Virus record (IMG/VR): IMGVR_UViG_3300025120_000020
Source of the DNA: a virus
Direction: 5' to 3' (one strand)
Length of the DNA stretch: 64,000 bases
The notes beneath the pieces are model-generated. The model was not told where the DNA came from, searched no databases, and saw only the letters and a program-made list of their open reading frames with translations. A program made the position numbers and the translations under genes. This document shows, piece after piece, positions 24,523 to 61,623 of this stretch. Position 1 is the stretch's first letter. Each line of letters starts with the position of its first letter.

Positions 24523-24556
24523 TAGCAGGGCTTCCACATCGTGAGCCCAAAATCTC

Positions 24557-24607: not shown

Positions 24608-24613
24608 ATGGCC

Positions 24614-25012: not shown

Positions 25013-25018
25013 AGCACC

Positions 25019-25783: not shown

Positions 25784-25786
25784 ATT

Positions 25787-26686: not shown

Positions 26687-26689
26687 ATT

Positions 26690-27076: not shown

Positions 27077-27084
27077 TATAAGCC

Positions 27085-27387: not shown

Positions 27388-27671
27388 CTTTGATTGCAAC
27401 AGCAATCTTGATCATCGCCATTTCAATTTTCATGATCTCAAGATCCAATAACCAGCACCTCGGCAACGGAAAAGGAGCACAAGGAACCGAAGAGCCTTGG
27501 GTTCTTGATACCGAATCTACTCCTTTCGAGCTTGCCCCTTGCGATCCCGCTAACTCCAAGCGCGGACATTCCCCCGCATGGCTTGAGACTAAAAACGATC
27601 TTGCCATCAAGGATGGCGCAGCGAGCGACAACAACTGGACGCTTTCTGGTGAAGACCTCAAACCAAACTAA
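27384..27671 (+). CDS. hypothetical protein with N-terminal hydrophobic segment
   Basis: ATGA overlap; TM-like N-terminus. Confidence 0.5.
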   Translation: MTLIATAILIIAISIFMISRSNNQHLGNGKGAQGTEEPWVLDTESTPFELAPCDPANSKRGHSPAWLETKNDLAIKDGAASDNNWTLSGEDLKPN

Positions 27672-27676
27672 CAAAA

Positions 27677-29632
27677 ATGGCCACTCCAAACATAGTTCCA
27701 AACTCAAATAACGAAGGTCGCCTTGGCCGCTCTGGCTTGCAATGGCTTGAAGTGCGAGGTCAGTCTATTTATCAGAACGGCAATCAGGTCGCGGACCTCG
27801 CGAGCCCTGCTTTTACCGGAAACCCAACTGCGCCAACGCAGTCTTCTTCAGATAATTCGACCAAGATTGCAACGACCGCCTTCGTCAAGAATGTGCTGTT
27901 TAATGATGGCTACCCCTTGTTTTCAGCTCACGCGGACCAAAGAATCCCGAAATATGTTACATCAAGTGGTAAATATGAGGACTCAGGCTACACATCCGCT
28001 GATTTCTTCAACCTCGCCAATGCAACCGGAACACTTACGAGCACTGGTAGTTTAATCGGACCTACTGGAGTTATTGGTGGTTCGTCAGACCTTCAAGATG
28101 ACATTTCCAACATCAACACTCGATTGGCTACTGTCGAAGGGGCGAGTCATGCCGCAGTTAGCCACACCCATGTCAGCGCCGACATCACTGATGCGAGCGC
28201 TACCGGAACTGCCAGCGTCCTTGTTCTCAGAGGCAGCACTGGAGAGGTAGTAGGGGGCAGCTCAGCCTCGACAGGCAATGGTATTACAGGTGACGCAACT
28301 GGAACACAAGGAATTGGAGTATTCGGGTCTAATATTGCTGGAGCAAGCGGAGCAGGGGGATCTTTTGTGTCCACAGCAACTTCCTCACCCGGCGCTGGCG
28401 TTATTTCCGAAATGAGCGGTAGCGCAACCAGACCAAACTTTTGGGGGTTTGGAACAGGCACTGGCAACTTTCTTGAATTTGCAGCCACTGCGGTTAGCGC
28501 GGCTCTTTTTTACATCACTAAGGCCGCTGAAATAGTCTGGGGGGTAGGAGCAAACACTAAAAAGATTGCTCCCGGAACGGCTACAGGAAACCGTGTTGCA
28601 ACTCTTCCTGACGCAACCGGGACTATTGTTCTTGGTGATGGTTCTGGAGTTACTGGTGCCACAGCTTTCAGAACCGCCATTGGCCTCGGAAGCTCATCCG
28701 ATCCCGAGTTCACGACTGTAGCAGTCGATGCAGGCACAAGCTCTGGATTGCTATTTGGATCTGGCGGGGCAAAGCTTGCATTGCAATCTGCCTCTTCCAC
28801 CACCACATACAGACTACCCTCTGGAGGGGGATCTGCTGAAAATCTTGTTGACGGAAAAGGGAATGGATTAACAGCCTCTAATTTCCGAACAGCCCTTGGG
28901 GTAGTTGCGGGCAGCGGCGGAACCATGACAGGAACGCTGATAATTAATCCTTCTTCGGGTTCGACCCAGTTGCAACTGACTGGAGCCAGCGGAAACACTG
29001 GAAGCATTATTTGCAATCCCGGTGGAGCAAGAACCTACACTATGCCCGACGCGACGGGAACCTTTGTTCTTGGAGATGGATCAGGAATTACCAGTGCTGC
29101 AAGTTTCAGAACCGCCCTTGGCGTTAGCCAAATCGGCTCCGATGTATCTATCGGGTATGCCCACGCTTACATAAAGCAGACATCAGCAGCAGCGGTAGCT
29201 ACGCCTGCGAGTGCCTCCCCGTCCATTGTAGTAGCTCCTTCAGCCAGCTTCCTGATGAGCAGCACAAGCCTGTTCACCATCCCAAATGCCGCATCAGCAA
29301 GCCTCACCTATGGTGGAGCTGGGGCTGACTCGTCGGGATCTGCTAATTTTGTTGTGTCTGCGTCGGTTTCTGTAGAAGACGCTGGAGCTAATCACGAAAT
29401 TGAACTTTCCATTGGTAAGGGAGGGACTCAGCAAACTGGCACAGTAATGAAGGCTACATATGGCTTATCGGGCACCCCCGGAGCCGATACCTCCATAAAC
29501 ATTGCCACTCAAGGAATTGTCAGTTTAGCTTTCAATGATACCATTCAGGTAATGATTCAAGACAAGGATGGAACCCCGGCAGACCTCAAGGTTGCTATGC
29601 TACATATCTCAATTATGCCGTTAAATAGTTAA
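27677..29632 (+). CDS. tail fibre protein
   Basis: ASPAFTGNPTAPT..DNSTKIATTAFV fibre motif; Gly/Ser/Thr rich; internal repeats T(L/M)PDATGT.VLGDGSG...FRTA(I/L)G. Confidence 0.8.
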   Translation: MATPNIVPNSNNEGRLGRSGLQWLEVRGQSIYQNGNQVADLASPAFTGNPTAPTQSSSDNSTKIATTAFVKNVLFNDGYPLFSAHADQRIPKYVTSSGKYEDSGYTSADFFNLANATGTLTSTGSLIGPTGVIGGSSDLQDDISNINTRLATVEGASHAAVSHTHVSADITDASATGTASVLVLRGSTGEVVGGSSASTGNGITGDATGTQGIGVFGSNIAGASGAGGSFVSTATSSPGAGVISEMSGSATRPNFWGFGTGTGNFLEFAATAVSAALFYITKAAEIVWGVGANTKKIAPGTATGNRVATLPDATGTIVLGDGSGVTGATAFRTAIGLGSSSDPEFTTVAVDAGTSSGLLFGSGGAKLALQSASSTTTYRLPSGGGSAENLVDGKGNGLTASNFRTALGVVAGSGGTMTGTLIINPSSGSTQLQLTGASGNTGSIICNPGGARTYTMPDATGTFVLGDGSGITSAASFRTALGVSQIGSDVSIGYAHAYIKQTSAAAVATPASASPSIVVAPSASFLMSSTSLFTIPNAASASLTYGGAGADSSGSANFVVSASVSVEDAGANHEIELSIGKGGTQQTGTVMKATYGLSGTPGADTSINIATQGIVSLAFNDTIQVMIQDKDGTPADLKVAMLHISIMPLNS

Positions 29633-29635
29633 GCT

Positions 29636-30349
29636 ATGAAATTACACCTCGCACTAATATCACTTGCGGCTCTATTGCTTGCAAGTTGTGCGACTTCGGA
29701 CTCTAATACTTTAGCTCCGCAGGCTGTTCCGGTTCCCCCTCCTGTTGCAACACCAAATATTGGACGGGCTGAAGAGCAGGTTCGCAAGGTGGAGGACAAG
29801 GTGGAGGATGTTGAGGATGCTGTCCGCGAGGTAGGGAGCCAACTGGAAGCGGCAAGAGCTTCGGCTAAATCAATTGAGGCGATTGCGGAGGAGGCTTATG
29901 CCAACGGGCTTGAGGCGGGATCATCGTCAGCAACAGACCTCAGAGCCTTTGTTAGTGAGCTGAAGGATGAGCTTAAAAGGTCAACTGAGGCGCGTGAGTC
30001 AGCGATGGTTGCGCTCGCTCAGACTAAAGTGGAGCTTGATAAGACTGAGCAGGCTAATGCCTTATTGCGGACGCAAATAACAACCATGGACGAGCAGAAC
30101 AAAGCGCTCGCAGCAAGGCTCAATGAGGCCAACGCAAGGATCAGGATAGGAGTCAAGATTGCAAAAGAGCGTGACGAGGCGCTTACAAAGTTGACAAAAA
30201 CTGAGGAAAAGCTATCCGGAGCCCGTAAATATGTTATCGGCGTCTGGATTGCTATAGTCCTAATTATCTTATACGTTGTCTTGAAAGTTCTTATTGCAAC
30301 TGGCAAGATCACACCGCAAGGCCGAATGGCTTCATTTCTTTTCCGATAA
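29636..30349 (+). CDS. lipoprotein with coiled coil and C-terminal TM (candidate unimolecular spanin)
   Basis: Lipobox LLASC, Pro-rich linker, long heptad region, C-terminal VIGVWIAIVLIILYVVL. Confidence 0.6.
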   Translation: MKLHLALISLAALLLASCATSDSNTLAPQAVPVPPPVATPNIGRAEEQVRKVEDKVEDVEDAVREVGSQLEAARASAKSIEAIAEEAYANGLEAGSSSATDLRAFVSELKDELKRSTEARESAMVALAQTKVELDKTEQANALLRTQITTMDEQNKALAARLNEANARIRIGVKIAKERDEALTKLTKTEEKLSGARKYVIGVWIAIVLIILYVVLKVLIATGKITPQGRMASFLFR

Positions 30350-30367
30350 CCATAACAAAAACCAACC

Positions 30368-30649
30368 ATGCCCACACATCTAAACCAGACCATGAACGTG
30401 AAGCACAAGTTTCAGGATAGCGCTATTGATGTGCTAAACCTTTCTGCTGCTGGAGCCGCTCCCGGCTCAGACTCAACCTTCAATAGTGTTGCAAGAGGCG
30501 TAATCTGTCAAACGGCAGGAAACCTTGAAGTCACCACTCTTGCGGATCATAAAGTAGTCATCCCTGTGCCTGTCGGTCAGCTTTCTATTTGCATTAAGAA
30601 AGTTTGGTCTGCAAGCACGACCGCTCAAGGAGTTTCAGTTCTTTTTTAA
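30368..30649 (+). CDS. head-spike base protein (RcGTA Rcc01079-like)
   Basis: ARGV..AGNLEV..PVG.L.I.IKKV..TTA pattern. Confidence 0.6.
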   Translation: MPTHLNQTMNVKHKFQDSAIDVLNLSAAGAAPGSDSTFNSVARGVICQTAGNLEVTTLADHKVVIPVPVGQLSICIKKVWSASTTAQGVSVLF

Positions 30650-30652
30650 GTC

Positions 30653-31936
30653 ATGCCCGGATCATTGCAACTCGGATTGGGGATTCAATGCGCTCAGGGG
30701 TTTCCATCCTCGTTCGACCCCTTATCCCTCAACCCGATTCTCGCATTTGAGGCAGAGAAGTCGATGATGGCCCCGCTGGCTTCCGAGTCCCTTGACCTTG
30801 ATCCGGCTACTCCATCGACGTTGGATATTATTACGGCTACCAGAGCGGGAACAGCAACATTCACTGACGCGAGTGGTAACATCCAAACCGCCTCACCAAA
30901 TACAGTTCGTGTTGATCACGTTGGCGGAGTGCCTATGATGCTTATTGAGCAAGCAGCTACTAACTTGGTTGTTAATAGTGAGGACTTTAGTGGGGTTGAT
31001 TGGAGTTATAGTTCTAACGCGATAGAAGTAAGTGAATCCAATAGCACACTGTCTCCGACGGGGTTACAGACAGCAGACAAACTTTCAAAAACTACAACCA
31101 GAGTATATGCTTACGCACATACGAACCAAACAATAACTTCAGGCCAAGCTTACACTTGGTCTGTGTTTATGAAGAAAGGAACTCACGATATCGGTTACTT
31201 ATCCTTAAATCAAGGCGACACTGAATACAAAGCATTTTATGATTTAACAGGTGGCACAAGCGGAATGATTACTGGGAGTGCGACTTCCAGCATAGAAGAT
31301 TTTGGAAATGATTGGTTTAGATGTTCTTTGCGCGGCGTTTCTTCTACTTCTGATGTTTCTGTAAGGTTCAATTTTGGTATGTCTTACACTACCTCTGGTG
31401 AAAATTGGCCGTCAGGCAGTCAGGGAGCTGGGCTATATGTTTACATATGGGGAGCGCAGCTTGAACAAGGCACAGTCGCCACATCCTTTATCCCCACATC
31501 AGGAAGCGCGGTGACGCGAGCGGCTGATGATCTTGTGATTGATGGTAGTGACTTTACAAACTTCTACAATACAAGTGAGGGAACCTTTTACGTAGAATTC
31601 ACTCCAAAGGATATTACCGTTGGAGAGCAGTATTTGTTGCGAGGGGGAGACAGTAATCGTAGAATTATTTATTCTAACGGAAACCTTAGTAACATTCGAA
31701 GCTATGATGGAGCTAATATTTTAACAATGTCCAATGCTGTTGCATCAAATGTTCTCCACAGAATAGCGGTGTCTTTCGATAGTAATACCATGAAAGGATC
31801 ACTTGATGGAGAAACTGAAGTCACATCTAATCATAGTGGAAATCTTCTTACATCATCCCTGCTTCAGGTAGGCACAAACTACATAGGCCACGTCAAGCGT
31901 CTCATCTACTGGCCTCATCACTCAGACAATCTCTAA
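30653..31936 (+). CDS. head-spike/fibre protein with carbohydrate-binding-like domains
   Basis: TRAGTATF.D..G..R.DH..LIEQAATNL, WGAQLE.G..ATSFIPT..VTRAAD and LamG-like C-terminus. Confidence 0.7.
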   Translation: MPGSLQLGLGIQCAQGFPSSFDPLSLNPILAFEAEKSMMAPLASESLDLDPATPSTLDIITATRAGTATFTDASGNIQTASPNTVRVDHVGGVPMMLIEQAATNLVVNSEDFSGVDWSYSSNAIEVSESNSTLSPTGLQTADKLSKTTTRVYAYAHTNQTITSGQAYTWSVFMKKGTHDIGYLSLNQGDTEYKAFYDLTGGTSGMITGSATSSIEDFGNDWFRCSLRGVSSTSDVSVRFNFGMSYTTSGENWPSGSQGAGLYVYIWGAQLEQGTVATSFIPTSGSAVTRAADDLVIDGSDFTNFYNTSEGTFYVEFTPKDITVGEQYLLRGGDSNRRIIYSNGNLSNIRSYDGANILTMSNAVASNVLHRIAVSFDSNTMKGSLDGETEVTSNHSGNLLTSSLLQVGTNYIGHVKRLIYWPHHSDNL

Positions 31937-31939
31937 ACA

Positions 31940-33529
31940 ATGGCACTCAATTTACAGACACTGACCAACTCCAGCACCAGTGCGGGGATTCTTACTGACT
32001 TGGCCAAGAGCGCGTCAAACCTTGACCTTGTCGCGTCCTTAGAGAACCAAGTAAGCGGAGGCGCGAATGCGACCCAGACCACAGCATCCAAACAGCCCCG
32101 CGCACACGCTCCAGTCGGCGGAGGTCATTTGTATCTATCAGGAGTGAGTGGGAACTACGCGAGTGTGCCTACAAGCACAGACTACGACAACCTTGCGAGC
32201 TTCACGATCGAGACCGAAGTGAGCCTGACCGATTGGAACGACACCTCAGATGCTCAAGCTCTCATGGCGAGGGCTTATAGCTGGGAAATCAGAGTGCAAG
32301 ACGGAGGCAAAATTCTTGTGGTTAATCGTAATTCATCGGGGTCGCAATACAATATCATATCGACAGCATCGCTGGGCCTCACCAACGGCACACTGGCTAA
32401 GGTCAGAGTCATGCGTGATGGTTACGATTGGAGCTTTTATAAGGATGATGGGTCAGGCTTTGTGCAAGTAGGGTCTACCGTAACGACCGCGCAAAACACC
32501 AATCAGGTCAACACAAGACCCATCGAGGTGGGTGCTTATAACAACGGCACTAATAAACCAGCAACGGGTTCGTTCAAACGTGCGCGACTGTGGGACAACG
32601 CATCACCAGACTCGACTGACCCCATTCTGGATATGTCCTTCTCCGACGGCGACCATGAGGCATCCTCCTTCACCTGCTCGACAGGGCAGACGGTAACCAT
32701 CAACACCTCAGGAACCGACCCCGCCACCATTGTTCGTAAATCATTCATGCGGATGGATATCGTCGATGACGAATATGAGTTCACAACGGATTCATCAGCG
32801 GTCAACGGAACCATCGTCGTTGGAACACTTGAGGGAACCTACAGCGCAAACATCTCCCTTGATGCTTCTACGCAATACGACCTGCAAGCGCGTGGTGTGG
32901 CATCTTCAGCGAACGTGGGATTCTTGAAGAACCCTGTGGGTTATCTCGTCTCCTCGTCGCCACTTAGTGAAAGTGAGGTCACTCAGATGGAGAACTACTT
33001 TGTTGATAAAGGGGCAGCAGCGAGGAGTGCATTTGGGAGTGTTACGAACTTCAATTCCGCATGGAAAGACTGCTCCTCAATCACATCATTCCCTGCGATC
33101 AACGCGCCATCAGTAACGGACTTCTATCGAGCATGGCGCCAATGCTCCTCTCTCACATCCTTTCCGCTGATTAATCCCGAATCGGCACTGCGCTTCCGTG
33201 AAACATGGTATGGCTGCACATCCCTCACCACGTTCCCTGCTAACTTCTTTGATGATTGGTCTCCCTCATCGCTATATACCAAAACGTTCGATAACGCATG
33301 GTATAACTGCACCTCCCTCACCGCTCAGTCCGTAGAAAACATCCTTGCCTCCATCGACACCAGCGGAGTCTACGGAACAAACACAGGGGCAAGCGGAGGC
33401 ACTCAGCTATCAGACATCACAATCGACATCGACTACGACGGAACCACGTTGTCATCCGCTACCGCCACGGCAATCACCAGCCTCAAATCTAAGAATTGGG
33501 CCATCTCAATCAACTCAGTAATTCAATAA
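31940..33529 (+). CDS. LamG-like plus BspA/DUF285-type LRR adhesin/fibre protein
   Basis: Concanavalin-like N-terminal part; repeats F..AW..C.S(L/I)T.FP. Confidence 0.65.
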   Translation: MALNLQTLTNSSTSAGILTDLAKSASNLDLVASLENQVSGGANATQTTASKQPRAHAPVGGGHLYLSGVSGNYASVPTSTDYDNLASFTIETEVSLTDWNDTSDAQALMARAYSWEIRVQDGGKILVVNRNSSGSQYNIISTASLGLTNGTLAKVRVMRDGYDWSFYKDDGSGFVQVGSTVTTAQNTNQVNTRPIEVGAYNNGTNKPATGSFKRARLWDNASPDSTDPILDMSFSDGDHEASSFTCSTGQTVTINTSGTDPATIVRKSFMRMDIVDDEYEFTTDSSAVNGTIVVGTLEGTYSANISLDASTQYDLQARGVASSANVGFLKNPVGYLVSSSPLSESEVTQMENYFVDKGAAARSAFGSVTNFNSAWKDCSSITSFPAINAPSVTDFYRAWRQCSSLTSFPLINPESALRFRETWYGCTSLTTFPANFFDDWSPSSLYTKTFDNAWYNCTSLTAQSVENILASIDTSGVYGTNTGASGGTQLSDITIDIDYDGTTLSSATATAITSLKSKNWAISINSVIQ

Positions 33530-33530
33530 T

Positions 33531-33920
33531 ATGCCTGAAGAAAATATAGAACTAACTCCAATCGAACAAAGCCGCGCCGAAACAGGACGGAGATATTTCG
33601 CGGTCGAACCTGATGTCTATGTCGCGATGTCTCAAGGAGTAGACCAAATTCGCAACTACCCAAAAGGTATAAATACAATTGCCCAGACACTGACGGGTCT
33701 AATCCCAATTGAGAAGCTGGAGACTGCAAATGATGACAGTGGCTTTGTCCTGACCTCTTTAGAGGTCTCGCGATTTACTGAGGCGGATGAAGCAATGATG
33801 GCTGATCCTATTGCATTAGGTCTGATTATAGAGATGACCAAAGCGGAGTTCGATACCCTAAAACCTTTGCCAATAGAGGAAATAGAGGAAATAGAGGAAA
33901 TAGAGGAAGATATAATTTAA
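33531..33920 (+). CDS. hypothetical acidic protein
   Basis: 129-aa ORF ending in IEE repeats. Confidence 0.6.
   Translation: MPEENIELTPIEQSRAETGRRYFAVEPDVYVAMSQGVDQIRNYPKGINTIAQTLTGLIPIEKLETANDDSGFVLTSLEVSRFTEADEAMMADPIALGLIIEMTKAEFDTLKPLPIEEIEEIEEIEEDII
33873..33908 (+). repeat. 4 x ATAGAGGAA tandem repeat at the strand/GC switch
   Basis: Seen directly. Confidence 0.95.
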
Positions 33921-34243: not shown

Positions 34244-34933
34244 TTAATCTTTAATAAAAGTGGAGTGCATCAAAGGAGTATGGTCAACACCATGAAATCC
34301 AAATGTGTCATAAGTTGAGAGTTCATCCGTAATGTGCTTTTGTTCTGGACACGCATTCCACTCAACTCCGAATTTAGCTGCCAACTCAACGGGAGCAAAT
34401 TTAATTTTATAAAGGGACTCTAGCTCCTCCTTTGACTTTAAACAAATAAATACATCTTCATTTCCAAAGGGACCATTAAGAGGATCTGTTATCTTCTTAG
34501 TGGCTTGCAATAATTTCTTACTTCTAAGAGAGAAGCCTCCATTCCCAACCCTACGAGATTTATCATTTATTGGATCGCGCCAAGGAGAACCAATGTAATC
34601 ATAGTTAAGGAATTCATCTTTCCAAAGCGAAGCATCGATTATAAATCCATCGTTTTCAATCGTTAAAACAAAATCCGTATTTATGTGATTGTCCAAACGA
34701 TTAAGTTTGAAAAAATTATAAGATTCATAACTGGAGTCCAAGTCATCTTCAAAGACGAATCTAACTCCAAGCGCTTCAAATTTAGAGGTATCTAGGTTGG
34801 GGATTTTTGAGCAAATCACGAAATCATCGAATTCAAAAACAGAGATGCAATGTTTAACAATCCCCAAGGTTATCTCTACCTCATCTTCTGATGAAATATA
34901 AGTAAAAAGAGATATGGTTTTATTGGATTTCAA
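34244..34933 (-). CDS. DUF5672-like glycosyltransferase-related protein
   Basis: DGF, YDYIGSPW, VGNGGFSLRSK, EDVF and FGFH motifs. Confidence 0.75.
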   Translation of the reverse strand: MKSNKTISLFTYISSEDEVEITLGIVKHCISVFEFDDFVICSKIPNLDTSKFEALGVRFVFEDDLDSSYESYNFFKLNRLDNHINTDFVLTIENDGFIIDASLWKDEFLNYDYIGSPWRDPINDKSRRVGNGGFSLRSKKLLQATKKITDPLNGPFGNEDVFICLKSKEELESLYKIKFAPVELAAKFGVEWNACPEQKHITDELSTYDTFGFHGVDHTPLMHSTFIKD

Positions 34934-36012: not shown

Positions 36013-36783
36013 TCAATATTTAAATGGATTTGCCGTGATAAATGTATTTGGCATTATCTTCCTAACATAAACATACCCTGAATTACGATAAGAGTCAAGC
36101 ATGTGATTTGTTAATGTTCTAAAAACCTTTGGAGTTCTATCTTTTACGCCCTTATTATTCATGGTAATACTCCAATCAGAATAAGTGGTTGCTTGGCCCA
36201 TTTCAAAGTCCATGCCCAACTGTTTCGCTATTCCCCAAAAATAAAACTCATCAGCAAAGATAACTTTTTCTTTCACAAAGAACTGTGACCAGTGCTCAAA
36301 AGTCTCAACAAACACTTCCACATCTTTTCTTCGGCAAACAAAAAACTGACAAACAGCGTTATACTCACCAAAATCGTAACCTTTTATCCCCTCCTTGAAA
36401 ATCTTTTGACCTTTAACTTTTGTGTGGAAGCTAAAATGCTTGGTAAAAGTCGTTTTTTTATATTTTTTTTTGATCAGGTCTACTGTGGTATCCAAATCAT
36501 ACAGGGGGAAATGAGAATCGCTAATTAAAGTAAAGTATTCATTGTCCTCGTCCTCTAAAGCTGCCCTCATTAGCTCTATTGTCGCTTCTACTAATGAAAA
36601 ATGACCCCAAGCTGTTGGAACGGTATTTTTTATGCAGTAATTAGAGAATGGGTGCTTAGTTTGATGTTTTGAGTGCAAATAAAGATTAAAACAGTCCTTG
36701 TCTCCCTGATTAAAAAACTCCTCCCAAACGCGATTGTGATAAAAAGAATTGATTGTTAAATTCAAAAAAGCTACTTTTTCCAT
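36013..36783 (-). CDS. core-2/I-branching (GT14-like) glycosyltransferase
   Basis: LY.H, TAWG.FSLV.A..L..AL.D..N.YF.LIS.S..PL, DEFYF and TY.DW motifs. Confidence 0.75.
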   Translation of the reverse strand: MEKVAFLNLTINSFYHNRVWEEFFNQGDKDCFNLYLHSKHQTKHPFSNYCIKNTVPTAWGHFSLVEATIELMRAALEDEDNEYFTLISDSHFPLYDLDTTVDLIKKKYKKTTFTKHFSFHTKVKGQKIFKEGIKGYDFGEYNAVCQFFVCRRKDVEVFVETFEHWSQFFVKEKVIFADEFYFWGIAKQLGMDFEMGQATTYSDWSITMNNKGVKDRTPKVFRTLTNHMLDSYRNSGYVYVRKIMPNTFITANPFKY

Positions 36784-36829
36784 TAATTTGTGTTTATAGT
36801 GTATTATAATAGTATAACCCAATTATACT

Positions 36830-37522: not shown

Positions 37523-38395
37523 ATGGCTGAAGAAGTAGAAGAGGTAAAATCGCTAACTTACCACGTTCAAGGAAATAGAGCAAACGCTGCTACATATACT
37601 TTTTATTCAGCTCCTTTCTTCCCAGAGATAAAAGAGGAAGCGGATACAATTAAGGTCAAATTCAATGAGGGTTATATTTACGATCATGCGAATATGACAA
37701 CGGATGATTTTGAGGATAAAACTAGCGATAATGCCTCCATCCCCCGAATTAAAGTCGAAGACTTAGAGCATACTCATGCCGAAGGTGAGAAGGTCGAATA
37801 TTCTATAGAAATCATAAGAAACGAGAAAACTGGAGAAGTAGTTTCAGCAAAAATTATTAGAACTGATCAAAAAACTAATGCCGAGACTTTTAGGAATTTT
37901 ATTGTAGAAAATGAATTAGAAACCCCCCCGCAACTTTTAAATCCACCAAATAAAACTCCAGAAGGGAAAGAAAGTTTTATCTACATCGATTTAGCTGATT
38001 TTAAAGGGTTTGAACTTAAAGAACTTTATGTAAGAGAAAATATTCACGTTTACTATAGGGGTTTTGAACAATTATCGGATAAAGATTCTGATAAAGTAGG
38101 CTCCGAAGAAGATCCATTCCCAATATTACTTACAACAGGAACGACTGGAGCGAATGGGATGATAGGAGTAAAGGCTTTAGTTGAGGAGAAAGATCGCTCG
38201 GACAATGTATCGGATGAAAACATCCTTGACATAACTGATGATGAGAATCAGATTTACCTATTTGTGCCAAAGTTCGACGATTCATTTTTGCAAGAGCAAA
38301 TTGACGCTTGTGCAACGACAGCACAACTAACCGCTTTGCAAGCCTCGGTCACCACCTCACTTGCGGCGATGCAAGCTCAAATTGATGATCTCTAG
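37523..38395 (+). CDS. hypothetical acidic protein with C-terminal coiled coil, possibly virion associated
   Basis: 290 aa; LQEQID/MQAQID tail. Confidence 0.6.
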   Translation: MAEEVEEVKSLTYHVQGNRANAATYTFYSAPFFPEIKEEADTIKVKFNEGYIYDHANMTTDDFEDKTSDNASIPRIKVEDLEHTHAEGEKVEYSIEIIRNEKTGEVVSAKIIRTDQKTNAETFRNFIVENELETPPQLLNPPNKTPEGKESFIYIDLADFKGFELKELYVRENIHVYYRGFEQLSDKDSDKVGSEEDPFPILLTTGTTGANGMIGVKALVEEKDRSDNVSDENILDITDDENQIYLFVPKFDDSFLQEQIDACATTAQLTALQASVTTSLAAMQAQIDDL

Positions 38396-38420: not shown

Positions 38421-38729
38421 TTAAAAATAAAGTTCATCAAAGAACCTATTTCCATTATATGCCTTGTCATCAATCCAAAAATCATATGCTGGCTTGTTCA
38501 TCTTAAGCTCTGTATATTTGACCCCCCACTCTTTAAGTTGCTTCTTTGTAAGCTCCGACCAATCTTTTCCTGAGTTCCCTCCTCTCGCAGTCCAGTAGAT
38601 TACTGTATTGCCACTATCAACCAATCCATTGAAATATTGAATACGAGCTTTCATAGGGCGAGCTAATTCATATCTGCCCCGACTATCTGTGCAAATAGTC
38701 CCATCAATGTCTACGATAAAAGTTTTCAT
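38421..38729 (-). CDS. small HAD-family phosphatase (candidate heptose-bisphosphate phosphatase)
   Basis: VDIDGT, WTARG, KP and WIDDK motifs. Confidence 0.75.
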   Translation of the reverse strand: MKTFIVDIDGTICTDSRGRYELARPMKARIQYFNGLVDSGNTVIYWTARGGNSGKDWSELTKKQLKEWGVKYTELKMNKPAYDFWIDDKAYNGNRFFDELYF

Positions 38730-39202
38730 AGTTCTTTAATTTTTGTTATAATTTTCGTGGCACTTATATCCTCAGAGAATGGAATGAAATATACCTCTGT
38801 TTGTCCACAGGATGCCTTCTCAGACGGATGTAATGTCGCAATGCTATAATCTCCACCTTTATACCAACGAGAGGGCTTAAGGTGTCTCAGGTAGCCAGAA
38901 ACTGTTGCGTCATTAAACACAAACACATGGTCAACGCACTCATGACAAGCTACAAGAAAGGCTCTCTGTTTTTGGCTGATAATAGGTCTTTCTGAACCCT
39001 TATTTTGCTTAACGCTTTCATCTCCATTCACGCCGACAACTAATTCGTAATCATCGGGCAAATCTTCCTTAATTGATTTCAGAAGGTGTGCATGACCTGC
39101 GTGAAACAAATCAAAGCAACCATTAGTAAAGGCCATATTTTTCGTTCCCGTCGAAAAATGGTGCATAATCTTAGTTATATTAGCTATTTTAGGATGATTC
39201 AT
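38726..39202 (-). CDS. hldC: heptose-1-phosphate nucleotidyltransferase (HldE/RfaE domain II, stand-alone)
   Basis: FTNGCFDLFHAGH, VGVN.D.SV..KG..RPI and KGGDY motifs. Confidence 0.85.
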   Translation of the reverse strand: MNHPKIANITKIMHHFSTGTKNMAFTNGCFDLFHAGHAHLLKSIKEDLPDDYELVVGVNGDESVKQNKGSERPIISQKQRAFLVACHECVDHVFVFNDATVSGYLRHLKPSRWYKGGDYSIATLHPSEKASCGQTEVYFIPFSEDISATKIITKIKEL

Positions 39203-39948
39203 ATCGTTGCTGTTCCAGCTTTACTGATGACAATGCTACAGCAAGTCTGAGCGTAGTCAATCGCTGAATCTATATCTTGATTGAATAAATAGTTAGTCGC
39301 AAAAGCAGCAAGGAAAGTGTCTCCAGCACCACTCACATCTCTCACTTGAGCGACAGATTTCAAAGGGTATTTCTTTCCTTTGAACCTACATCCTCCACCC
39401 CCTAAAGTAACAATAAGGTTATCCATACCCATCCCTTTAAATCCATTCTCTTTGTATTCCTTTTCGTTGATTTTAATCAGATCAAATGAATTAGCCCACT
39501 TTGAATTATATTTCTTTTTAGTGTCTAAAAAAGACATTTGAGCATTATCTGCAATATATTTTAAATCTTTGTCTGTCAGATATCCCTTATTGTAATCAGA
39601 AACGATTACAGCATCATAAGACCACACGTTTGCTTCATGCAACTTTAATTCATCAATCTCTTTATACTCATCTGAATCAACGCGCAAAAACATTTGATTA
39701 GAATTAGAGTCAATATATCTAACCTTTGCTCCAGTGCTTTTATTGCTTTTAATCTCTACCTCTGCCTTTTTACCTAAATCATCAAGGCAAGCAATGACAT
39801 TTCTATGGACGTTAAAGGCCATACCCATAAAGGTAACTGAGTCCTCCTGCTTAAAAACAGGGACTGGAGCTTCTGGGCATAATCTATCAGCAGACCCATA
39901 AGTAAAAATGTCTAAGCATGACTCTCCAATAACAAGAATTTTTTTCAT
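39199..39948 (-). CDS. hldA: heptose-7-phosphate kinase (HldE/RfaE domain I, PfkB family)
   Basis: ILVIGE..LD, RLCPEAPVPV, VSDYNKG and DVSGAGDTF motifs. Confidence 0.85.
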   Translation of the reverse strand: MKKILVIGESCLDIFTYGSADRLCPEAPVPVFKQEDSVTFMGMAFNVHRNVIACLDDLGKKAEVEIKSNKSTGAKVRYIDSNSNQMFLRVDSDEYKEIDELKLHEANVWSYDAVIVSDYNKGYLTDKDLKYIADNAQMSFLDTKKKYNSKWANSFDLIKINEKEYKENGFKGMGMDNLIVTLGGGGCRFKGKKYPLKSVAQVRDVSGAGDTFLAAFATNYLFNQDIDSAIDYAQTCCSIVISKAGTATI

Positions 39949-40319
39949 TTCTGCGAATCTCCTTTTTGAACCCTGTAAGAATCTTCCTCAAAATGCTGAG
40001 TGCTTACTTCAAATACAGAAGATTCTTCTATAGCAATGAGTTTATGAGGTATACAAGGCTTTAAATGAATTGTCTCTCCAACCCGCAAGATCATTTCTTT
40101 TTCCTCGGCATTACTCAAATCATAATATTTTAAAAGAAGTTTACCTTTTATTACGGCCCAAGTTTCTTCCTTCTTGATATGGTAGTGCATGGAGAACTCC
40201 GCTCCTTTATTAAACTTTAGAATTTTTCCGCAATAAAGTTCGTTGTTCGTAATCCAGATCTCTTTACCCCAGCCCTTTGCATAAGTCTCAACAATACCTT
40301 TGATTGGCTCCATGCTCAT
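39945..40319 (-). CDS. cupin sugar-isomerase-like protein
   Basis: KGWG.E.W, SMHYH..KEETW, H.L and FEVST cupin metal motifs. Confidence 0.75.
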   Translation of the reverse strand: MSMEPIKGIVETYAKGWGKEIWITNNELYCGKILKFNKGAEFSMHYHIKKEETWAVIKGKLLLKYYDLSNAEEKEMILRVGETIHLKPCIPHKLIAIEESSVFEVSTQHFEEDSYRVQKGDSQK

Positions 40320-40325
40320 TAAGTA

Positions 40326-40353
40326 ATTTTAGCTAGAATACATGAAAATTCAA
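40326..40353 (-). promoter_or_regulatory. promoter TTGAAT-16-TAAAAT, 6 nt before ATG 40319
   Basis: Seen directly; heads the heptose operon. Confidence 0.6.
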
Positions 40354-40363
40354 TAGCTAATCA

Positions 40364-40392
40364 TAAAAAAACCGTCCCGAAGGACGGCTTTT
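40364..40392. terminator. intrinsic terminator (possibly bidirectional)
   Basis: aaaaaaa-ccgtcc-cgaa-ggacgg-ctttt. Confidence 0.8.
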
Positions 40393-40552
40393 AAATTATT
40401 TAAAATGATTTATGTTTATTGCTGCTCTTTCCCCCTCTCCTTTCCTTTTACCTCGCCTTTATTAGAAATAGCTGAGTAACAAAAAAAAGATGAGATAGCT
40501 GACAATACAATTATCCTCACGGTTTAATCACATAAATTATGATGCGTTATTT

Positions 40553-40753
40553 TTACTTATCGCCTTTATCTTTGGCTTTACCAAAATTAATGCTGAGAAA
40601 ATCTACGACTTTGTAAGCTTTCGACAGCCAAGTCCCCTGTTTTGGGGTTGGGGAAGCAGCAGCAAATGCACTAGCCGCAGCAATAACAGCACAAGCCCAG
40701 TTAAACCAAACTTTATCTTCAACGAACGATGTAATAATCTCAATAATATCCAT
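40553..40753 (-). CDS. small membrane protein (holin-like)
   Basis: Hydrophobic ACAVIAAASAFAA; TP..YK.VD.L.IN.GKAK motif. Confidence 0.6.
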   Translation of the reverse strand: MDIIEIITSFVEDKVWFNWACAVIAAASAFAAASPTPKQGTWLSKAYKVVDFLSINFGKAKDKGDK

Positions 40754-40931
40754 AACAATATTTTGTTTGTATAGCTTATTACACCAAGCGAGGCAACAGG
40801 GAATTATCTGCCTTGTCCCCTGTAGGGTTTTTTGTAATTTTTAGAGCTTTTAATGCTAGAGGTCTTGCTTTTAGCATGAACTCCTTTGCGCCTAATCTTC
40901 TTCTTTTCCTCGTAAGTTTTGTTTGCTTTTT

Positions 40932-41477
40932 TCATTTTTTTAATTCTTCTAATAAACTTTCTAAATTTCTCATTAGAGAGTCTTCTTTGAGCCAAATATT
41001 GTCACAAATTGTCCTGCGATATTCGCCATGTTTATCGACATCACTAGCGTAATTCCAACCTTTTAAAGTTACTTCTCCAGTCACAGAATCAGCCTCTGTT
41101 GTTGTCCAAATCACAATAGCACCTTTATTTAAGTATTGTTTCAATTGACGGGGAGGGATACACCTTTTAAATTTCTCCCAGTGAGAATTCCTTAAACCTT
41201 TTACTTCTATAAACGAATCTTTTATTGCAATGTCAGGCTTGCCTCTAGAGTTTTCAAAATCAATAAAGCATGGAGATACTTCTACATCTTTTAAATTTTC
41301 TCTTAACCAAACTACAGTAGCTACCTCGGACTTTACGCCAATTAAATTACTATCAACTCTATTGTGATTGTAAGATCCAGAGCCTTTGGTTTTATCGCCT
41401 CCGTATTTTTCAACAATTTTTTTGGCATGATCCTCACACCAATCCAGTTGTTCTTGCGATAACTCTATTTCAATCAT
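40932..41477 (-). CDS. hypothetical protein, PD-(D/E)xK-like
   Basis: G..SE, PD and IEVK motifs. Confidence 0.55.
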   Translation of the reverse strand: MIEIELSQEQLDWCEDHAKKIVEKYGGDKTKGSGSYNHNRVDSNLIGVKSEVATVVWLRENLKDVEVSPCFIDFENSRGKPDIAIKDSFIEVKGLRNSHWEKFKRCIPPRQLKQYLNKGAIVIWTTTEADSVTGEVTLKGWNYASDVDKHGEYRRTICDNIWLKEDSLMRNLESLLEELKK

Positions 41478-41842
41478 TAATCTTTGACAAATTGTCCATC
41501 CACCATCTTTCCAGTGCGGCCCTTAATTACATCATAAGCTGCATTTAAACAGTCTGTAGTGTCTAGCTCTACCATCTTAGCGAGTAAAACAATAGTAACC
41601 AACATGTCTCCAATACCGTCCTTAACTTCTGCAAGAATATCCTCTTTATTTTCAGGAGGAATTCCAAGAACTTCCATCAAGTTAGGTTGACGATCAAGAT
41701 CATTTAGTTTTTTTAAAGCTGCTCTTGTTTCATCAAGCTCTTCTTGCGTCTTGTCTAGTTGTCTAAGTGGGGTAGAAGAATCTAAAATCCCTTTACTTTC
41801 CCCCCACTCAATCACTAATTTACTTAGTTCTTCGTGTTCCAT
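41477..41842 (-). CDS. MazG-like nucleotide pyrophosphohydrolase
   Basis: QEELDE, DGIGDMLV and AY..IKGRTGKM.DG.FVK motifs. Confidence 0.8.
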   Translation of the reverse strand: MEHEELSKLVIEWGESKGILDSSTPLRQLDKTQEELDETRAALKKLNDLDRQPNLMEVLGIPPENKEDILAEVKDGIGDMLVTIVLLAKMVELDTTDCLNAAYDVIKGRTGKMVDGQFVKD

Positions 41843-41852
41843 ATCTGCTCTT

Positions 41853-41880
41853 AGTATAAGGAAATTTTAAGCCGTGTCAA
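41853..41880 (-). promoter_or_regulatory. promoter TTGACA-16-TATACT
   Basis: Seen directly, 10 nt before ATG 41842. Confidence 0.7.
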
Positions 41881-41887
41881 CTATTTT

Positions 41888-42184
41888 TCATAATTTAACA
41901 GTCTTAGGGGATATTTCCTCTATTTCTTCGCATAACCTAAGTATCTCTGAAGTCTGCATATCAGGAGCTTTTGCTTTTAACTTAAAAAGCTCTTTATAAA
42001 AATAAATATAATCCCTGTCCTGATTAACATATTCTTGATCTCTGATATTAAAAATGTGATCTATGTATGTCTCGTAAATTGTAGCATCAATGCACTTCTC
42101 TACTGGATCATAAACAGAATTAGACACAACGTAGTCAAAGATGTCGTGACGGCTCACATTGATATGAAATATCTCTTCATTCAC
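41888..42184 (-). CDS. hypothetical protein
   Basis: 98-aa ORF in operon. Confidence 0.55.
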   Translation of the reverse strand: MNEEIFHINVSRHDIFDYVVSNSVYDPVEKCIDATIYETYIDHIFNIRDQEYVNQDRDYIYFYKELFKLKAKAPDMQTSEILRLCEEIEEISPKTVKL

Positions 42185-42186
42185 TG

Positions 42187-42819
42187 TTAAAGCTCTTTTA
42201 TACGTTTGATGACCATTTGGTAGGTTTCATCTGAAGGGTCATTCTTTCTATTCGGCGCAATCATTTTGTGCGTTAGAATGTTTTCTATTCCAAGGTCAAA
42301 TTTATCCATAAGGTATTTGCATTTCTTGGCAGCAGAATCAATTTCAACCGCACTTGGTGTGCGTTTATTAGTATCTCCATAAAAAGAAATGCCGACACTA
42401 TGGCCATTTAGACCACTTACACCTTTCCAAGAAGATCTTCCTGCATGCCAAGCCCTTTTTTTGTCATAAACAAATTGTGTGCGAGATCCATCAGGCGCAA
42501 TAAGATAGTGATAACTAACCTTTGATGCAGCATTTAAAATCCATGAACGAGTCCCATCATGACTTCCACTGCTATGATGCAGAACCACATACTTAGGTTT
42601 AATGGCTCCAGATTGGTTTGGAGAAGCTTTATAAACTTCAGGGTAATCATCTTTAAGTTCTTGAGCTTCAGGCTCTGGCTTTTCTGGCTCACCTTTATCA
42701 TCATGAATCAGATTCTCCCAAATCATTTTCCATGTAGCAGGACCATCAATCCCGTCAGCTTTAAGGCCAAGTTTTTTTTGAACTTGCTTAACGATACGGT
42801 CTTTACCAGAAAACTTCAT
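42187..42819 (-). CDS. endolysin: PG-binding domain plus N-acetylmuramoyl-L-alanine amidase (Amidase_2)
   Basis: LKADGIDGPAT; VLHH, SYHY, RAWHAG and HK..AP.RK.DP motifs. Confidence 0.9.
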   Translation of the reverse strand: MKFSGKDRIVKQVQKKLGLKADGIDGPATWKMIWENLIHDDKGEPEKPEPEAQELKDDYPEVYKASPNQSGAIKPKYVVLHHSSGSHDGTRSWILNAASKVSYHYLIAPDGSRTQFVYDKKRAWHAGRSSWKGVSGLNGHSVGISFYGDTNKRTPSAVEIDSAAKKCKYLMDKFDLGIENILTHKMIAPNRKNDPSDETYQMVIKRIKEL

Positions 42820-42879
42820 AATCACCTAATTATATTCTTTGGCAAGATAAATTCAAGCAATTAATATTACATTAATTTC

Positions 42880-43194
42880 TTATTTTTTTAAAAATTTATC
42901 AGGATTCTTTTCAAACTTCTTCGCTAATGCAATTAACCCATTTGTAATCTCTGGAGCTACTACTCCAACTACGCCATAAGAAATAGCCTTAATAAAATCA
43001 CTTATAGGAGCATCATGCAATACGAACCATAAAATGCCTGATAATATAGCAGCAGCCAAAACATTCCTAAAAAAACATTTTAAGGAAACCCTTCCCTTAA
43101 AAGTAAGCATGCGAACAATCATACCTGATGCTCCAATAACAGGAATAACCCAGCCACCGTCTAAAAACTCCCTGATTATGCTTTTAAAATCCAT
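42880..43194 (-). CDS. holin
   Basis: Three hydrophobic segments, basic C-terminus, adjacent to endolysin. Confidence 0.7.
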   Translation of the reverse strand: MDFKSIIREFLDGGWVIPVIGASGMIVRMLTFKGRVSLKCFFRNVLAAAILSGILWFVLHDAPISDFIKAISYGVVGVVAPEITNGLIALAKKFEKNPDKFLKK

Positions 43195-43279
43195 ACAAAA
43201 TATATTACACAAAAATATGCCACAAACATATATTTATAAAAAGATTCTAGAAACAGAAGCCTTTAATAATGAAGGTTTT

Positions 43280-43531
43280 CTATTGGTTATAAACTTGTCG
43301 CTCTAGCTTTCTGTAACGAGCGTCTGAGTGCCAAACCTCATCGGTCTGCGGAGTATAAACGCCCTCTTCAGTCTGAATTGGCTGACCCTCCTTCAGCTTC
43401 AACGAAGACGGCTGATATATGTTTAAACTGCTTGTTTTCGGTGAGGAGCTGCCCCCGCAAGAAGTCAGCGCGATCACTGGACTCATTGTCGCCAATATCC
43501 CGTAGCTTTTCAATTTCTTCGATAAGTTCAT
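43280..43531 (-). CDS. lipoprotein, candidate o-spanin (Rz1-like)
   Basis: Basic N-region, lipobox ALTSC; overlaps the 3' part of 43368-43637 in another frame. Confidence 0.55.
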   Translation of the reverse strand: MNLSKKLKSYGILATMSPVIALTSCGGSSSPKTSSLNIYQPSSLKLKEGQPIQTEEGVYTPQTDEVWHSDARYRKLERQVYNQ

Positions 43532-43637
43532 ATTTTCTTTTGTTATGTTTCTCTGTAATTTCAGAGAATGCGAGTTTATTTCTCAAATTGAGGTATAACT
43601 CCACGCTTTTTAATACAGATTTAATTAGAGATACCAT
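43368..43637 (-). CDS. candidate i-spanin (Rz-like)
   Basis: Coiled-coil; overlapping lipoprotein gene; in lysis cassette; TM segment weak. Confidence 0.45.
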   Translation of the reverse strand: MVSLIKSVLKSVELYLNLRNKLAFSEITEKHNKRKYELIEEIEKLRDIGDNESSDRADFLRGQLLTENKQFKHISAVFVEAEGGSANSD

Positions 43638-43644
43638 TTCTTTA

Positions 43645-44445
43645 TTATACACACTCTAAGACTTGTTTCCAATCCATTTCTCCAATCGCAGATGTTAGCT
43701 TTGTAATGTCTGCTTGGGTAAATTTTTGATACTTGCCCTTGAGTTTTGTGGGCATCGCTATCTGCTTGACCTTTGCCCCAGAGTTTTCTGCCATTTTATC
43801 TGCAATTTCTTTAAAAGAAACAGAGTTGCCAGTCCCAACATTAAAAACCCCATTAGTATCATGATGAAGCATCCTATAATGAACTTCACAAACATCTTCC
43901 ACATGCACGAAGTCTCTACTAGCTTTTCCCCTAAATACTTTGATCTCGCCATCTTCTTGAATTTGTTTGATGAATTTCGTTATCGGACTTGCCTGATCTC
44001 CTTTATGTTCCTCATGTGGACCATATACATTAAAATAGCGAAATCCTTGATAGGGATGATCTTCGTTCAAAAGCCAGTTGTCAAACATATATTTGCTATA
44101 AGCATAAGGGTTTAGAGGGACGCAGAACTGATCCTCTTCAAATGTCTCTGCTGCACCATAGACAGAACCACTGCTAGCGTATTGAAATTTAACACCCATA
44201 TTCGCACATAATTGATAAAGTGTGCCAGAGAATATAAAATTCTCATTTAAAATCTTTTTTAAGTCGGTTTCCGTAGTGCTAGAGTTAGCTCCAAGATGAA
44301 TGACGGCATCAATACCATTCAAAGGAGGCAAACTACCACCGAACTTAATATCGTAAGGAACGACCTCTATTCCTCTTTTCTCAAGATAAGGACAGAGATT
44401 TTTGCCAATAAACCCCTCACTGCCCGTAACTAATACCCTTTTCAT
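43645..44445 (-). CDS. hldD: ADP-L-glycero-D-manno-heptose 6-epimerase
   Basis: VTGSEGFIG, GANSSTT, PLNPYAYSK and RYFNVYGP.E.HKG motifs. Confidence 0.85.
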   Translation of the reverse strand: MKRVLVTGSEGFIGKNLCPYLEKRGIEVVPYDIKFGGSLPPLNGIDAVIHLGANSSTTETDLKKILNENFIFSGTLYQLCANMGVKFQYASSGSVYGAAETFEEDQFCVPLNPYAYSKYMFDNWLLNEDHPYQGFRYFNVYGPHEEHKGDQASPITKFIKQIQEDGEIKVFRGKASRDFVHVEDVCEVHYRMLHHDTNGVFNVGTGNSVSFKEIADKMAENSGAKVKQIAMPTKLKGKYQKFTQADITKLTSAIGEMDWKQVLECV

Positions 44446-61622: not shown

Positions 61623-61623
61623 A

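Follow-up and report, generated by a model that had tools for sequence, protein, structure and literature searches.

GmhA is regarded as the step through which all heptose synthesis has to start, and it is used to predict heptose capability. The locus described here raises the question whether the same pathway can be entered through a protein of an entirely different fold. It belongs to an uncultured marine phage (IMGVR_UViG_3300025120_000020), of which we analyzed a stretch of 64,000 nt, hereinafter the window. Based on the comparisons presented below, we consider it probable that five genes of this phage are responsible for the synthesis of ADP-heptose, with a cupin taking the place of GmhA in the first step.

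Organization of the proposed heptose locus

Four genes of the minus strand form an operon (38421-40319) and encode a metal-binding cupin of 124 aa (39945-40319), a PfkB family kinase of 249 aa (39199-39948), a nucleotidyltransferase of 158 aa (NT; 38726-39202), and a cap-less HAD protein of only 102 aa, here referred to as mini-HAD (38421-38729). All three gene junctions are ATGA overlaps, and the positions, coupling and families of the four genes are as proposed in the initial annotation. The fifth gene, encoding an HldD-like short-chain dehydrogenase/reductase (SDR) of 266 aa (43645-44445, minus strand), is located 3.3 kb from the operon start, where, again as first described, it adjoins lysis genes, namely an amidase gene, a holin-like ORF and spanin-like ORFs. 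Directly upstream of the operon, a terminator-like hairpin with an 11-bp stem and a T run (40367-40392, minus strand) would end the preceding unit, consistent with the cupin gene being the first of a transcript of its own; eight such sites were found in the region versus 3.8 expected. The promoter that had been proposed to head the operon did not hold up to the same scrutiny: this sigma-70-like candidate, TTGAAT-16-TAAAAT (40326-40353, minus strand), matches 9 of 12 consensus positions, which alone is not above chance, given that 22 promoter-like sites were found in the region versus 20.7 expected.

No match to GmhA (TIGR00441/PF13580) was detected in the window, either with the GmhA profile against the six-frame translation or by tblastn with GmhA queries; tblastn also yielded no significant GT9 or GmhB-like match, and there is no gene for a GT9 heptosyltransferase (PF01075) anywhere in the window, in agreement with the reported absence of both SIS-fold gmhA and GT9. 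Although the rest of the source phage genome lies outside the window, gmhA is likewise missing from a relative (G020) that is 89% complete.

The phage would be expected to follow the same five chemical steps as the bacterial ADP-L-glycero-beta-D-manno-heptose pathway (GmhA, HldE or HldA and HldC, GmhB, HldD). In the proposed scheme, the cupin would convert sedoheptulose-7-phosphate (S7P) to D-glycero-D-manno-heptose-7-phosphate in place of the SIS-fold GmhA; the PfkB kinase, a candidate heptose-7-phosphate 1-kinase, would phosphorylate O1; the mini-HAD would remove the 7-phosphate from heptose-1,7-bisphosphate in place of GmhB; the HldC-like NT would adenylylate the heptose-1-phosphate; and the HldD-like SDR, a candidate ADP-glyceromanno-heptose 6-epimerase, would epimerize C6. 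Whereas gene order and overlaps, protein families, the metal and HAD motifs and the linkage across genomes are direct observations, we infer the substrate of each step, the choice of nucleotide and the heptose acceptor from motifs and genomic context. The phage kinase and NT are homologues of domains I and II of HldE, respectively, and the epimerase is a homologue of HldD; kinase and NT are encoded separately, an arrangement also known from bacteria that have HldA and HldC. Unlike in the bacterial pathway, however, all three are shorter and fall under the equivalog cut-offs, and the slots of GmhA and GmhB are occupied by the cupin and the mini-HAD.

Kinase, nucleotidyltransferase and epimerase

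Among the PfkB subfamilies, the kinase best matches TIGR02198 (rfaE_dom_I; E = 3.4e-35), followed by ribokinase (E = 1.7e-11). Its score of 121.7 bits lies below the cut-off (345), and with 249 aa it is shorter than the model (315 positions). The NT, the translation of which contains an HxGH motif (HAGH), matches TIGR02199 (rfaE_dom_II) over model positions 7-144 (E = 1e-37; 129.2 bits versus a cut-off of 181.5), the next family being at 1.3e-11. The HldD-like SDR carries the motifs GxxGxxG (GSEGFIG) and YxxxK (YAYSK) and scores 238 bits with TIGR02197 (E = 1.4e-70; cut-off 274.6) compared to 93 bits with GalE; its N-terminal domain is ~20 residues short of the model. Thus, all three remain under the NCBIfam equivalog cut-offs, but for each of them the HldE or HldD models are by a wide margin the best match.

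The cupin and its affinity to sugar isomerases

The profile search assigned the cupin to Cupin_2, and its predicted structure is an all-beta barrel (pLDDT 92.9), not a SIS fold. The His-His-Glu-His metal site (H45, H47, E52, H92) is invariant in 20 homologues. In hhalign comparison with the phosphomannose isomerase (PMI)-like domain of E. coli CpsB (E = 3.5e-5, probability 71.6%), KGWG pairs with RPWG and SMHYH..E.W pairs with SVQMHHHRAEHW. The cupin passes the cut-off of the D-lyxose isomerase family PF07385 over residues 25-72 only (48 residues; 22.9 versus 20.8 bits) and stays just under that of type II PMI (PF01050; 23.0 versus 23.6 bits), which is exceeded by a fused cupin homologue from CPR bacteria (28.7 bits). 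Ranked by sequence identity, the nearest structural neighbours are the D-lyxose isomerases (Z = 14.4, 22-26% identity) and the archaeal mini-PMI 7zvm (Z = 15.0, rmsd 1.8, 21% identity); the top Z score, tied with those of the isomerases, belongs to the cupin domain of CapF (Z = 15.9, 13% identity), and fold searches cannot tell isomerase cupins from other cupins. The CapF domain is a C3-epimerase acting on a sugar nucleotide.

The cupin shares with type II PMI and D-lyxose isomerase the barrel, the metal-ligand pattern and a PWG-like motif, but is only distantly related to them by profile scores, and its clade displays an invariant set of its own (K15, E20, Y29, C30, E104, S106, T107, H109, D113, S114, R116). 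It is probably a remote relative of type II PMI that interconverts an aldose and a ketose in a metal-dependent manner. S7P is fructose-6-phosphate with one carbon more, and its isomerization has the same C1-C2 stereochemistry as that of fructose to mannose.

The mini-HAD and the sugar that is activated

The invariant residues of the mini-HAD (D7, D9, T11, T47, K79, D88) correspond to HAD motifs I-IV, whereas its family calls, HAD_PNKP and TIGR01689, are both weak (23.6 bits versus a cut-off of 162 for TIGR01689). Its nearest solved relative is AfhF (9iqw; profile E = 4.8e-23, Z = 13.1, 31% identity), with 1xpj also close (E = 3.6e-17, Z = 12.3), and the protein is a member of the 1xpj/AfhF/TIGR01689 cap-less HAD phosphatases, that is, a relative of TIGR01689 and no equivalog. 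Assignment to the GmhB family (HAD subfamily IIIA) was rejected: no GmhB model was matched at E <= 0.01, GmhB structures in the PDB were at E = 0.35-0.46, and the Z score was 8.4 as opposed to 13.1 for AfhF. The phage enzyme AfhF converts arabinofuranose-1,5-bisphosphate to the 1-phosphate (PMC13326640), the same kind of step as proposed for the mini-HAD. The window has no gmhB, and the mini-HAD is a candidate replacement for GmhB, as originally suggested, but it is no wholly new solution: the family already includes a characterized sugar-1,omega-bisphosphate phosphatase.

In the phage route of UDP-arabinofuranose synthesis and DNA arabinosylation (HY126 AfhE/AfhF; RB69, DLP3), isomerization, 1-phosphorylation, removal of the distal phosphate and nucleotidyl transfer follow each other in the order proposed here. 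The sugar there is a pentose and ends up on DNA; no cytosine-hydroxylating or hydroxymethylating enzyme was recognized in the scanned ORFs of the window between 34 and 64 kb. The cassette might instead activate a sugar other than heptose, with the PMI-like cupin converting fructose-6-phosphate to mannose-6-phosphate, or acting on a different ketose phosphate, en route to an NDP-beta-hexose or NDP-pentose by Afh-like logic. This would agree with the profile families nearest to the cupin, with the activity of the only characterized relative of the mini-HAD on arabinose-1,5-bisphosphate, with the subthreshold scores of all HldE and HldD matches, and with the location of DPANN cupin homologues (5 loci) among housekeeping genes, suggestive of a general sugar-phosphate isomerase ancestry. 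However, the Afh route relies on a SIS-type isomerase and, in AfhE, on other NT and kinase folds. Furthermore, a 6-epimerase of the HldD type needs a heptose, and in many other phages and lineages HldD orthologues adjoin the cassette or show linkage to it; in three loci (L078, L080, L103), the cupin has a gene of the GT9 heptosyltransferase family as its neighbour; and the rfaE models surpass every other kinase and NT family by over 20 orders of magnitude. Activation of a sugar other than heptose is, in our assessment, unlikely.

Distribution of the cassette and near-exclusion of gmhA

Of 41 viral records with the cupin, 36 also have the kinase and 35 the NT, in several gene orders. Mutual exclusivity of cupin and gmhA had been set beforehand as a test of the proposal that the cupin is a new S7P isomerase, and the outcome did not refute it: gmhA is present in none of the 41 cupin-bearing viral records, and the cupin in only 2 of 45 gmhA-bearing ones; two viral contigs, L141 and L180, contain both the SIS GmhA and the cupin. 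Previously known viral heptose clusters, such as that of Caulobacter phage Cr30, resemble the present one in encoding a kinase, an epimerase and a glycosyltransferase, but possess SIS GmhA, mostly without a cupin, and the kinase in L180 is of the GHMP rather than the PfkB fold. Unlike these clusters, L191 has GmhA alongside a PfkB kinase of the phage type and the mini-HAD (order: kinase, mini-HAD, NT, GmhA). Its kinase is 51% identical to that of L199 (kinase, HldD, NT, mini-HAD, cupin), and the two are related cassettes differing only in GmhA versus cupin.

Relatives of the cassette also contain HAD-cupin, HAD-NT and kinase-cupin fusions, the latter represented in CPR bacteria by at least 80 protein clusters. 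In the CPR locus L103, the gene order is kinase-cupin, NT-HAD, HldD, GT9, and the respective genome (G060) has no gmhA or SIS_2 match. The cyanophages P-SSM2, S-SM2, S-SSM7, P-TIM68, S-CAM1, S-CAM3 and others carry clustered orthologues of all five genes (37-45% identity; 26-34% for the NT), corresponding to the "LPS" set T4-GC 304-308 of T4-like cyanophages; the phage in the window is unrelated to these, with a genome of ~110 kb and a DnaE-type replication module. The cassette itself is therefore no new DNA, being already present in published genomes of cyanomyoviruses, where it is mislabelled: the RefSeq names of the HAD ("phosphoheptose isomerase") and of the cupin ("cysteine dioxygenase") both look wrong. 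The cyanophage genes have been listed as heptose-related LPS genes (PMC7378029), whereas cyanobacterial LPS, according to a review, is devoid of heptose (PMC4390846), so that cyanophages with the cassette would need an isomerase of their own; gmhA is absent from all five complete cyanophage isolates that carry it.

These patterns also bear on the possibility that the cassette makes ADP-heptose from heptose-7-phosphate supplied by a host GmhA, with the cupin performing an accessory job, for instance epimerizing the heptose, with or without its nucleotide, to another isomer, or catalyzing a different metal-dependent reaction. The two contigs with both genes would be accounted for in this way, as would the top structural match to CapF and the cupin loci without a neighbouring kinase or NT (~25 of 80). 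Nevertheless, the near exclusivity of cupin and gmhA, the L191/L199 pair, the complete CPR cluster with GT9 in a genome lacking gmhA, and the five complete cyanophage genomes without gmhA, whose hosts reportedly have heptose-free LPS, all argue against an accessory cupin. In L180, GmhA sits with the GHMP kinase, presumably constituting a separate GDP-heptose route. Moreover, the cupin has a metal site, a feature that RmlC-type epimerases are not known to have. On balance, an accessory role appears quite improbable. Finally, phage genomes are mosaic and the promoter candidate does not rise above the chance expectation, but a fortuitous neighbourhood of genes with no common function is hardly credible in the face of ATGA coupling at three junctions and a set that is kept over cupin identities from 98% to ~40%, with several gene orders and fusions.

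Collectively, the HldE and HldD assignments, the near-exclusion of gmhA, the L191/L199 swap, the adjacency of GT9 and the gene fusions support the ADP-heptose reading, in line with the initial view of the cupin as a candidate S7P isomerase that completes a phage heptose route.

Possible use of the product and implications

A possible user of the heptose product is the GT14 "Branch"-type glycosyltransferase (36013-36822, minus strand), which is syntenic with the cassette in ~20 related contigs. The DUF5672 protein (34244-34933, minus strand), considered earlier as a glycosyltransferase candidate, is present in only a few close relatives, and GT9-like genes are found in the relative G020 and in G042. 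Tentatively, and with rather low confidence, one might envisage that the cupins represent a second, GmhA-independent class of S7P isomerases common to marine phages, CPR bacteria and DPANN archaea, and that phage ADP-heptose is transferred by GT9/TibC-like or other phage glycosyltransferases onto virion proteins or DNA rather than host LPS.

If the cupin indeed replaces GmhA, this would resolve a puzzle of long standing, the occurrence of "heptose LPS genes" in cyanophages despite the reportedly heptose-free LPS of their hosts and the absence of phage gmhA, and would correct the two widespread cyanophage protein names. It would also extend the newly characterized AfhF family of sugar-bisphosphate phosphatases to a second class of substrates and raise the question of how abundant ocean viruses use ADP-heptose. 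Genomes now classed as devoid of the pathway, among them those of numerous marine phages, CPR bacteria and DPANN archaea, may then possess it.

Gene content and genomic setting of the cassette

Four minus-strand genes of the window, encoding a cupin (39945-40319; 124 aa), a PfkB kinase resembling HldE domain I (39199-39948; 249 aa), an HldE domain II-like nucleotidyltransferase (NT; 38726-39202; 158 aa) and a minimal HAD protein (mini-HAD; 38421-38729; 102 aa), overlap by ATGA at each junction (38421-40319); both the ORFs and the coupling described in the initial annotation were thus recovered. The cassette is completed by an HldD-like SDR (43645-44445) which matches the NCBIfam HldD model with 238 bits versus 93 bits for GalE. 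In Pfam and NCBIfam profile searches, the kinase matched rfaE_dom_I (E = 3.4e-35; the runner-up family, ribokinase, 1.7e-11) and the NT matched rfaE_dom_II (1e-37; runner-up family, 1.3e-11), with the scores of the kinase, NT and SDR all falling under the curated equivalog cut-offs. The cupin matched Cupin_2 and, more weakly, D-lyxose isomerase, the PMI C-terminal domain and WbuC, and the HAD match was weak. Six-frame searches of the window with the GmhA profile and with GmhA, GT9 and GmhB-like queries yielded no match, confirming that gmhA, the gene for the SIS-fold sedoheptulose-7-phosphate (S7P) isomerase, and a GT9 heptosyltransferase gene are absent from it.

The proposal that the cassette is a heptose route, with the cupin standing in for GmhA and the mini-HAD for the phosphatase GmhB, drew support from gene co-occurrence, fusions and an apparent swap with GmhA, all described below, but not from the promoter thought to head the operon: the promoter-like site at 40353-40326 is 1 of 22 in the region, against a chance expectation of 20.7. 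A terminator-like hairpin with an 11-bp stem (40392-40367) lies directly upstream of this site. When a phage collection was searched with the window at the nucleotide level, only four short matches were obtained, all inside hldD.

All parts of the cassette sit in a low-GC block (33921-64000). The GC content falls at position 33920 from about 50% (1-33920) to about 36%, and similarity to the closest relative, L003, ends exactly there; none of five relatives of the low-GC block, among them the 89%-complete G020, matches the region 14000-33900 at the DNA level. The junction reflects either a chimeric assembly or the exchange of a structural module. A second nucleotide-sugar module (58595-62954) comprises a GDP-mannose 4,6-dehydratase (338.8 bits), an SDR epimerase/reductase, a GT2 glycosyltransferase, a SAM methyltransferase and a DUF2334 protein, and the phage also seems to make or modify a GDP-6-deoxyhexose. 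L003 carries ~1.7 kb of unmatched DNA (5400-7106) at the position where the window has 67 bp (43214-43281) separating the holin-like from the spanin-like ORFs.

The cupin family is predominantly viral and linked to the kinase and NT

The cupin family abounds in viral contigs (at least 562 loci) and is rare in cellular species representatives (21 loci); its ESM Atlas clusters are 86-100% viral. Of 41 cupin-bearing whole viral records, 36 encode the kinase and 35 the NT. Across 80 loci compared by tblastn, the four cassette genes stay clustered at cupin identities of 98% to about 50%, in the orders cupin-kinase-NT-HAD, cupin-NT-kinase and kinase-cupin-HAD-NT-HldD. Approximately 25 of these loci have a solitary cupin, although for G039 and the complete genome G042 the kinase and NT are encoded elsewhere on the same record. 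Furthermore, cassette proteins occur as fusions: HAD-cupin (221-232 aa), HAD-NT (in locus L047) and, in CPR bacteria, kinase-cupin (~435 aa; at least 80 clusters, proteins P0129-P0208), the last often named rfaE or heptose kinase in the source. The CPR kinase-cupin proteins represent an alternative bifunctional architecture to HldE. Twelve of the 16 cellular MAGs with the cupin encode an rfaE_dom_II-like NT, and the DPANN homologs examined, at five loci, are flanked by housekeeping genes.

Candidate functions of the cupin and mini-HAD

Residues H45, H47, E52 and H92, which form the classic cupin metal site, are invariant across 20 cupin homologs, which also share K15, W17, G18, E20, Y29, C30, E104, S106, T107, H109, D113, S114 and R116. 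The AlphaFold model of the cupin is confident (pLDDT 92.9), and structure searches returned many cupins tied in rank, including the CapF cupin domain (Z 15.9; 13% identity), the Thermococcus mini-PMI 7zvm (Z 15.0; rmsd 1.8; 21% identity), KdgF (Z 14.8) and D-lyxose isomerases (Z 14.4; 22-26% identity). Searches by Foldseek, VIA-align and PDB sequence or profile similarly gave generic cupins tied in rank, too unspecific to decide the function. Among the matches listed, none was an RmlC-type sugar-nucleotide epimerase. An hhalign comparison with the PMI-like C-terminal domain of Escherichia coli CpsB (probability 71.6%; E = 3.5e-5) paired KGWG of the cupin with RPWG, SMHYHIKKEETW with SVQMHHHRAEHW, and PHK with THC. 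Because of the invariant metal site and this alignment, the protein is predicted to be a metal cupin and a distant relative of enzymes interconverting fructo-type ketoses and manno-type aldoses. Conversion of S7P to D-glycero-D-manno-heptose-7-phosphate is a reaction of the same kind. Our literature searches turned up no published proposal that a cupin acts as a heptose isomerase.

In the mini-HAD, D7, D9, T11, T47, K79 and D88 are invariant. Its family profile retrieved PDB entries 9iqw (E = 4.8e-23) and 1xpj (3.6e-17), with GmhB at just 0.35-0.46, and the structural model is likewise closer to 9iqw (Z 13.1; 31% identity) than to GmhB (Z 8.4). As summarized in PMC13326640, citing He et al. 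(Nat Chem Biol 2026), 9iqw is AfhF, a Mg-dependent phosphatase of phage HY126 which converts arabinofuranose-1,5-bisphosphate to the 1-phosphate en route to UDP-arabinose. Both this reaction and the GmhB step strip the distal phosphate from a sugar-1,omega-bisphosphate. Of the two putative replacements, the HAD assignment is the best grounded, since distal-phosphate removal of the AfhF type would be exactly the GmhB step.

The cupin and GmhA rarely co-occur

The expected mutual exclusivity of the cupin and gmhA was observed with two exceptions: with sampling anchored on the cupin or GmhA rather than on the kinase, gmhA (TIGR00441) was found in none of the 41 cupin-bearing viral records, which include two complete genomes and G020, and the cupin was found in only 2 of 45 viral records with a GmhA relative (contigs L180 and L141). 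These two contigs, carrying both genes, count toward the less likely alternative that the cupin is not the isomerase. In L180, GmhA lies beside a GHMP kinase, at a distance of 5 kb from the cupin, which neighbors an HldC-like NT; GmhA together with GHMP kinase would represent the GDP-heptose route. Both L180 (7748-16243) and L141 encode the GHMP kinase with the SIS GmhA, plus a Cpn60 chaperonin, and the HldC-like NT, cupin and a 4Fe-4S ferredoxin stand separately. In total, GmhA relatives are encoded on 270 viral stretches; one high-GC record labelled as phage (L114, 4963-6522) encodes an apparent HAD (GmhB-like)-GmhA fusion of 519 aa.

The reading of the cupin as the isomerase is also illustrated by individual loci. 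The order in L191 is kinase (42% identical to that of the window), mini-HAD (54%), NT and SIS GmhA, without the cupin, and in L199 it is kinase (51% identical to that of L191), HldD, NT, mini-HAD and cupin, without GmhA; a scan anchored on the L191 kinase alone recovered 3 loci. On a 917-kb contig of a Levyibacteriota MAG (locus L103, 7035-11380), kinase-cupin, NT-HAD, HldD-like SDR and GT9 heptosyltransferase genes follow one another, and there is no GmhA/SIS_2 match in this genome. Nor was any GmhA/SIS_2 match detected at E<=0.1 in five cassette-bearing cyanophage isolates with complete genomes. A weak TIGR00441 match in genome G003 (E = 8.8e-4) was dismissed as noise; it falls inside a homolog of the window ORF 37523-38395 (plus strand, 290 aa), which has no Pfam family.

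The nature of the sugar

That the cassette yields a different sugar, hexose or pentose, appears unlikely given its links to HldD and GT9, and is retained at this low level because the kinase, NT and HldD models all score below cut-off. HldD orthologs adjoin the cassette in many phages. In locus L080 (7762-14269), the cupin-NT-kinase operon is immediately preceded by a gene for a 732-aa GT4-GT9 fusion that overlaps its start, and L078 has the same layout (tblastn). On the opposite strand beside this gene, L080 encodes an 813-aa collagen-repeat protein, possibly a fiber and a candidate glycosylation target. GT9-like genes are also present in G020 and G042, the latter product (L196, 1094-2296; 400 aa) weakly matching the TibC N-terminal domain (E = 0.0019); TibC-type enzymes heptosylate proteins. 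No DNA-hypermodification enzymes were recognized among the ORFs scanned in window 34-64 kb. An Afh-type arabinose route ranks below the heptose route, as it relies on other folds for the kinase, NT and isomerase and as HldD and GT9 are cassette-linked. Collectively, the heptose reading of the cupin and mini-HAD, drawn from comparative sequence analysis, is supported by independent genomic lines but unproven.

The cassette in isolated cyanophages

All five genes have orthologs in isolated cyanomyoviruses, for example P-SSM2, S-SM2, S-SSM7, P-TIM68, S-CAM1, S-CAM3, S-T4 and Bellamy. Cyanophage cassette genes have been listed as heptose-related LPS genes (PMC7378029), and rfaE has been reported in pelagimyophages (PMC7029224). 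According to a review, cyanobacterial LPS is devoid of heptose and Kdo (PMC4390846); therefore, without host heptose, a phage-encoded isomerase would be necessary in cyanophage systems. In P-TIM68, a gene annotated with a transketolase central region (L108, 1929-3074) immediately precedes the heptose kinase gene, a hint that this phage raises the supply of S7P as well.

The cyanophage proteins of 103-114 aa named "phosphoheptose isomerase" in RefSeq were rejected as co-occurring GmhA: BLASTP (41-45% identity to the window HAD) and Pfam (HAD_PNKP as the sole match) identify them as mini-HADs, and the complete genomes concerned contain no SIS or GmhA match. The cyanophage cupin, in turn, carries the label "cysteine dioxygenase" or "putative nucleotidyltransferase." The HAD and cupin are systematically misannotated in S-SM2, S-CAM3, P-SSM2, P-TIM68 and S-SSM7 (L084, L085, L107, L108 and L109, respectively). 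The cassette is a variation of a known pathway, already present in published phage genomes under wrong names.
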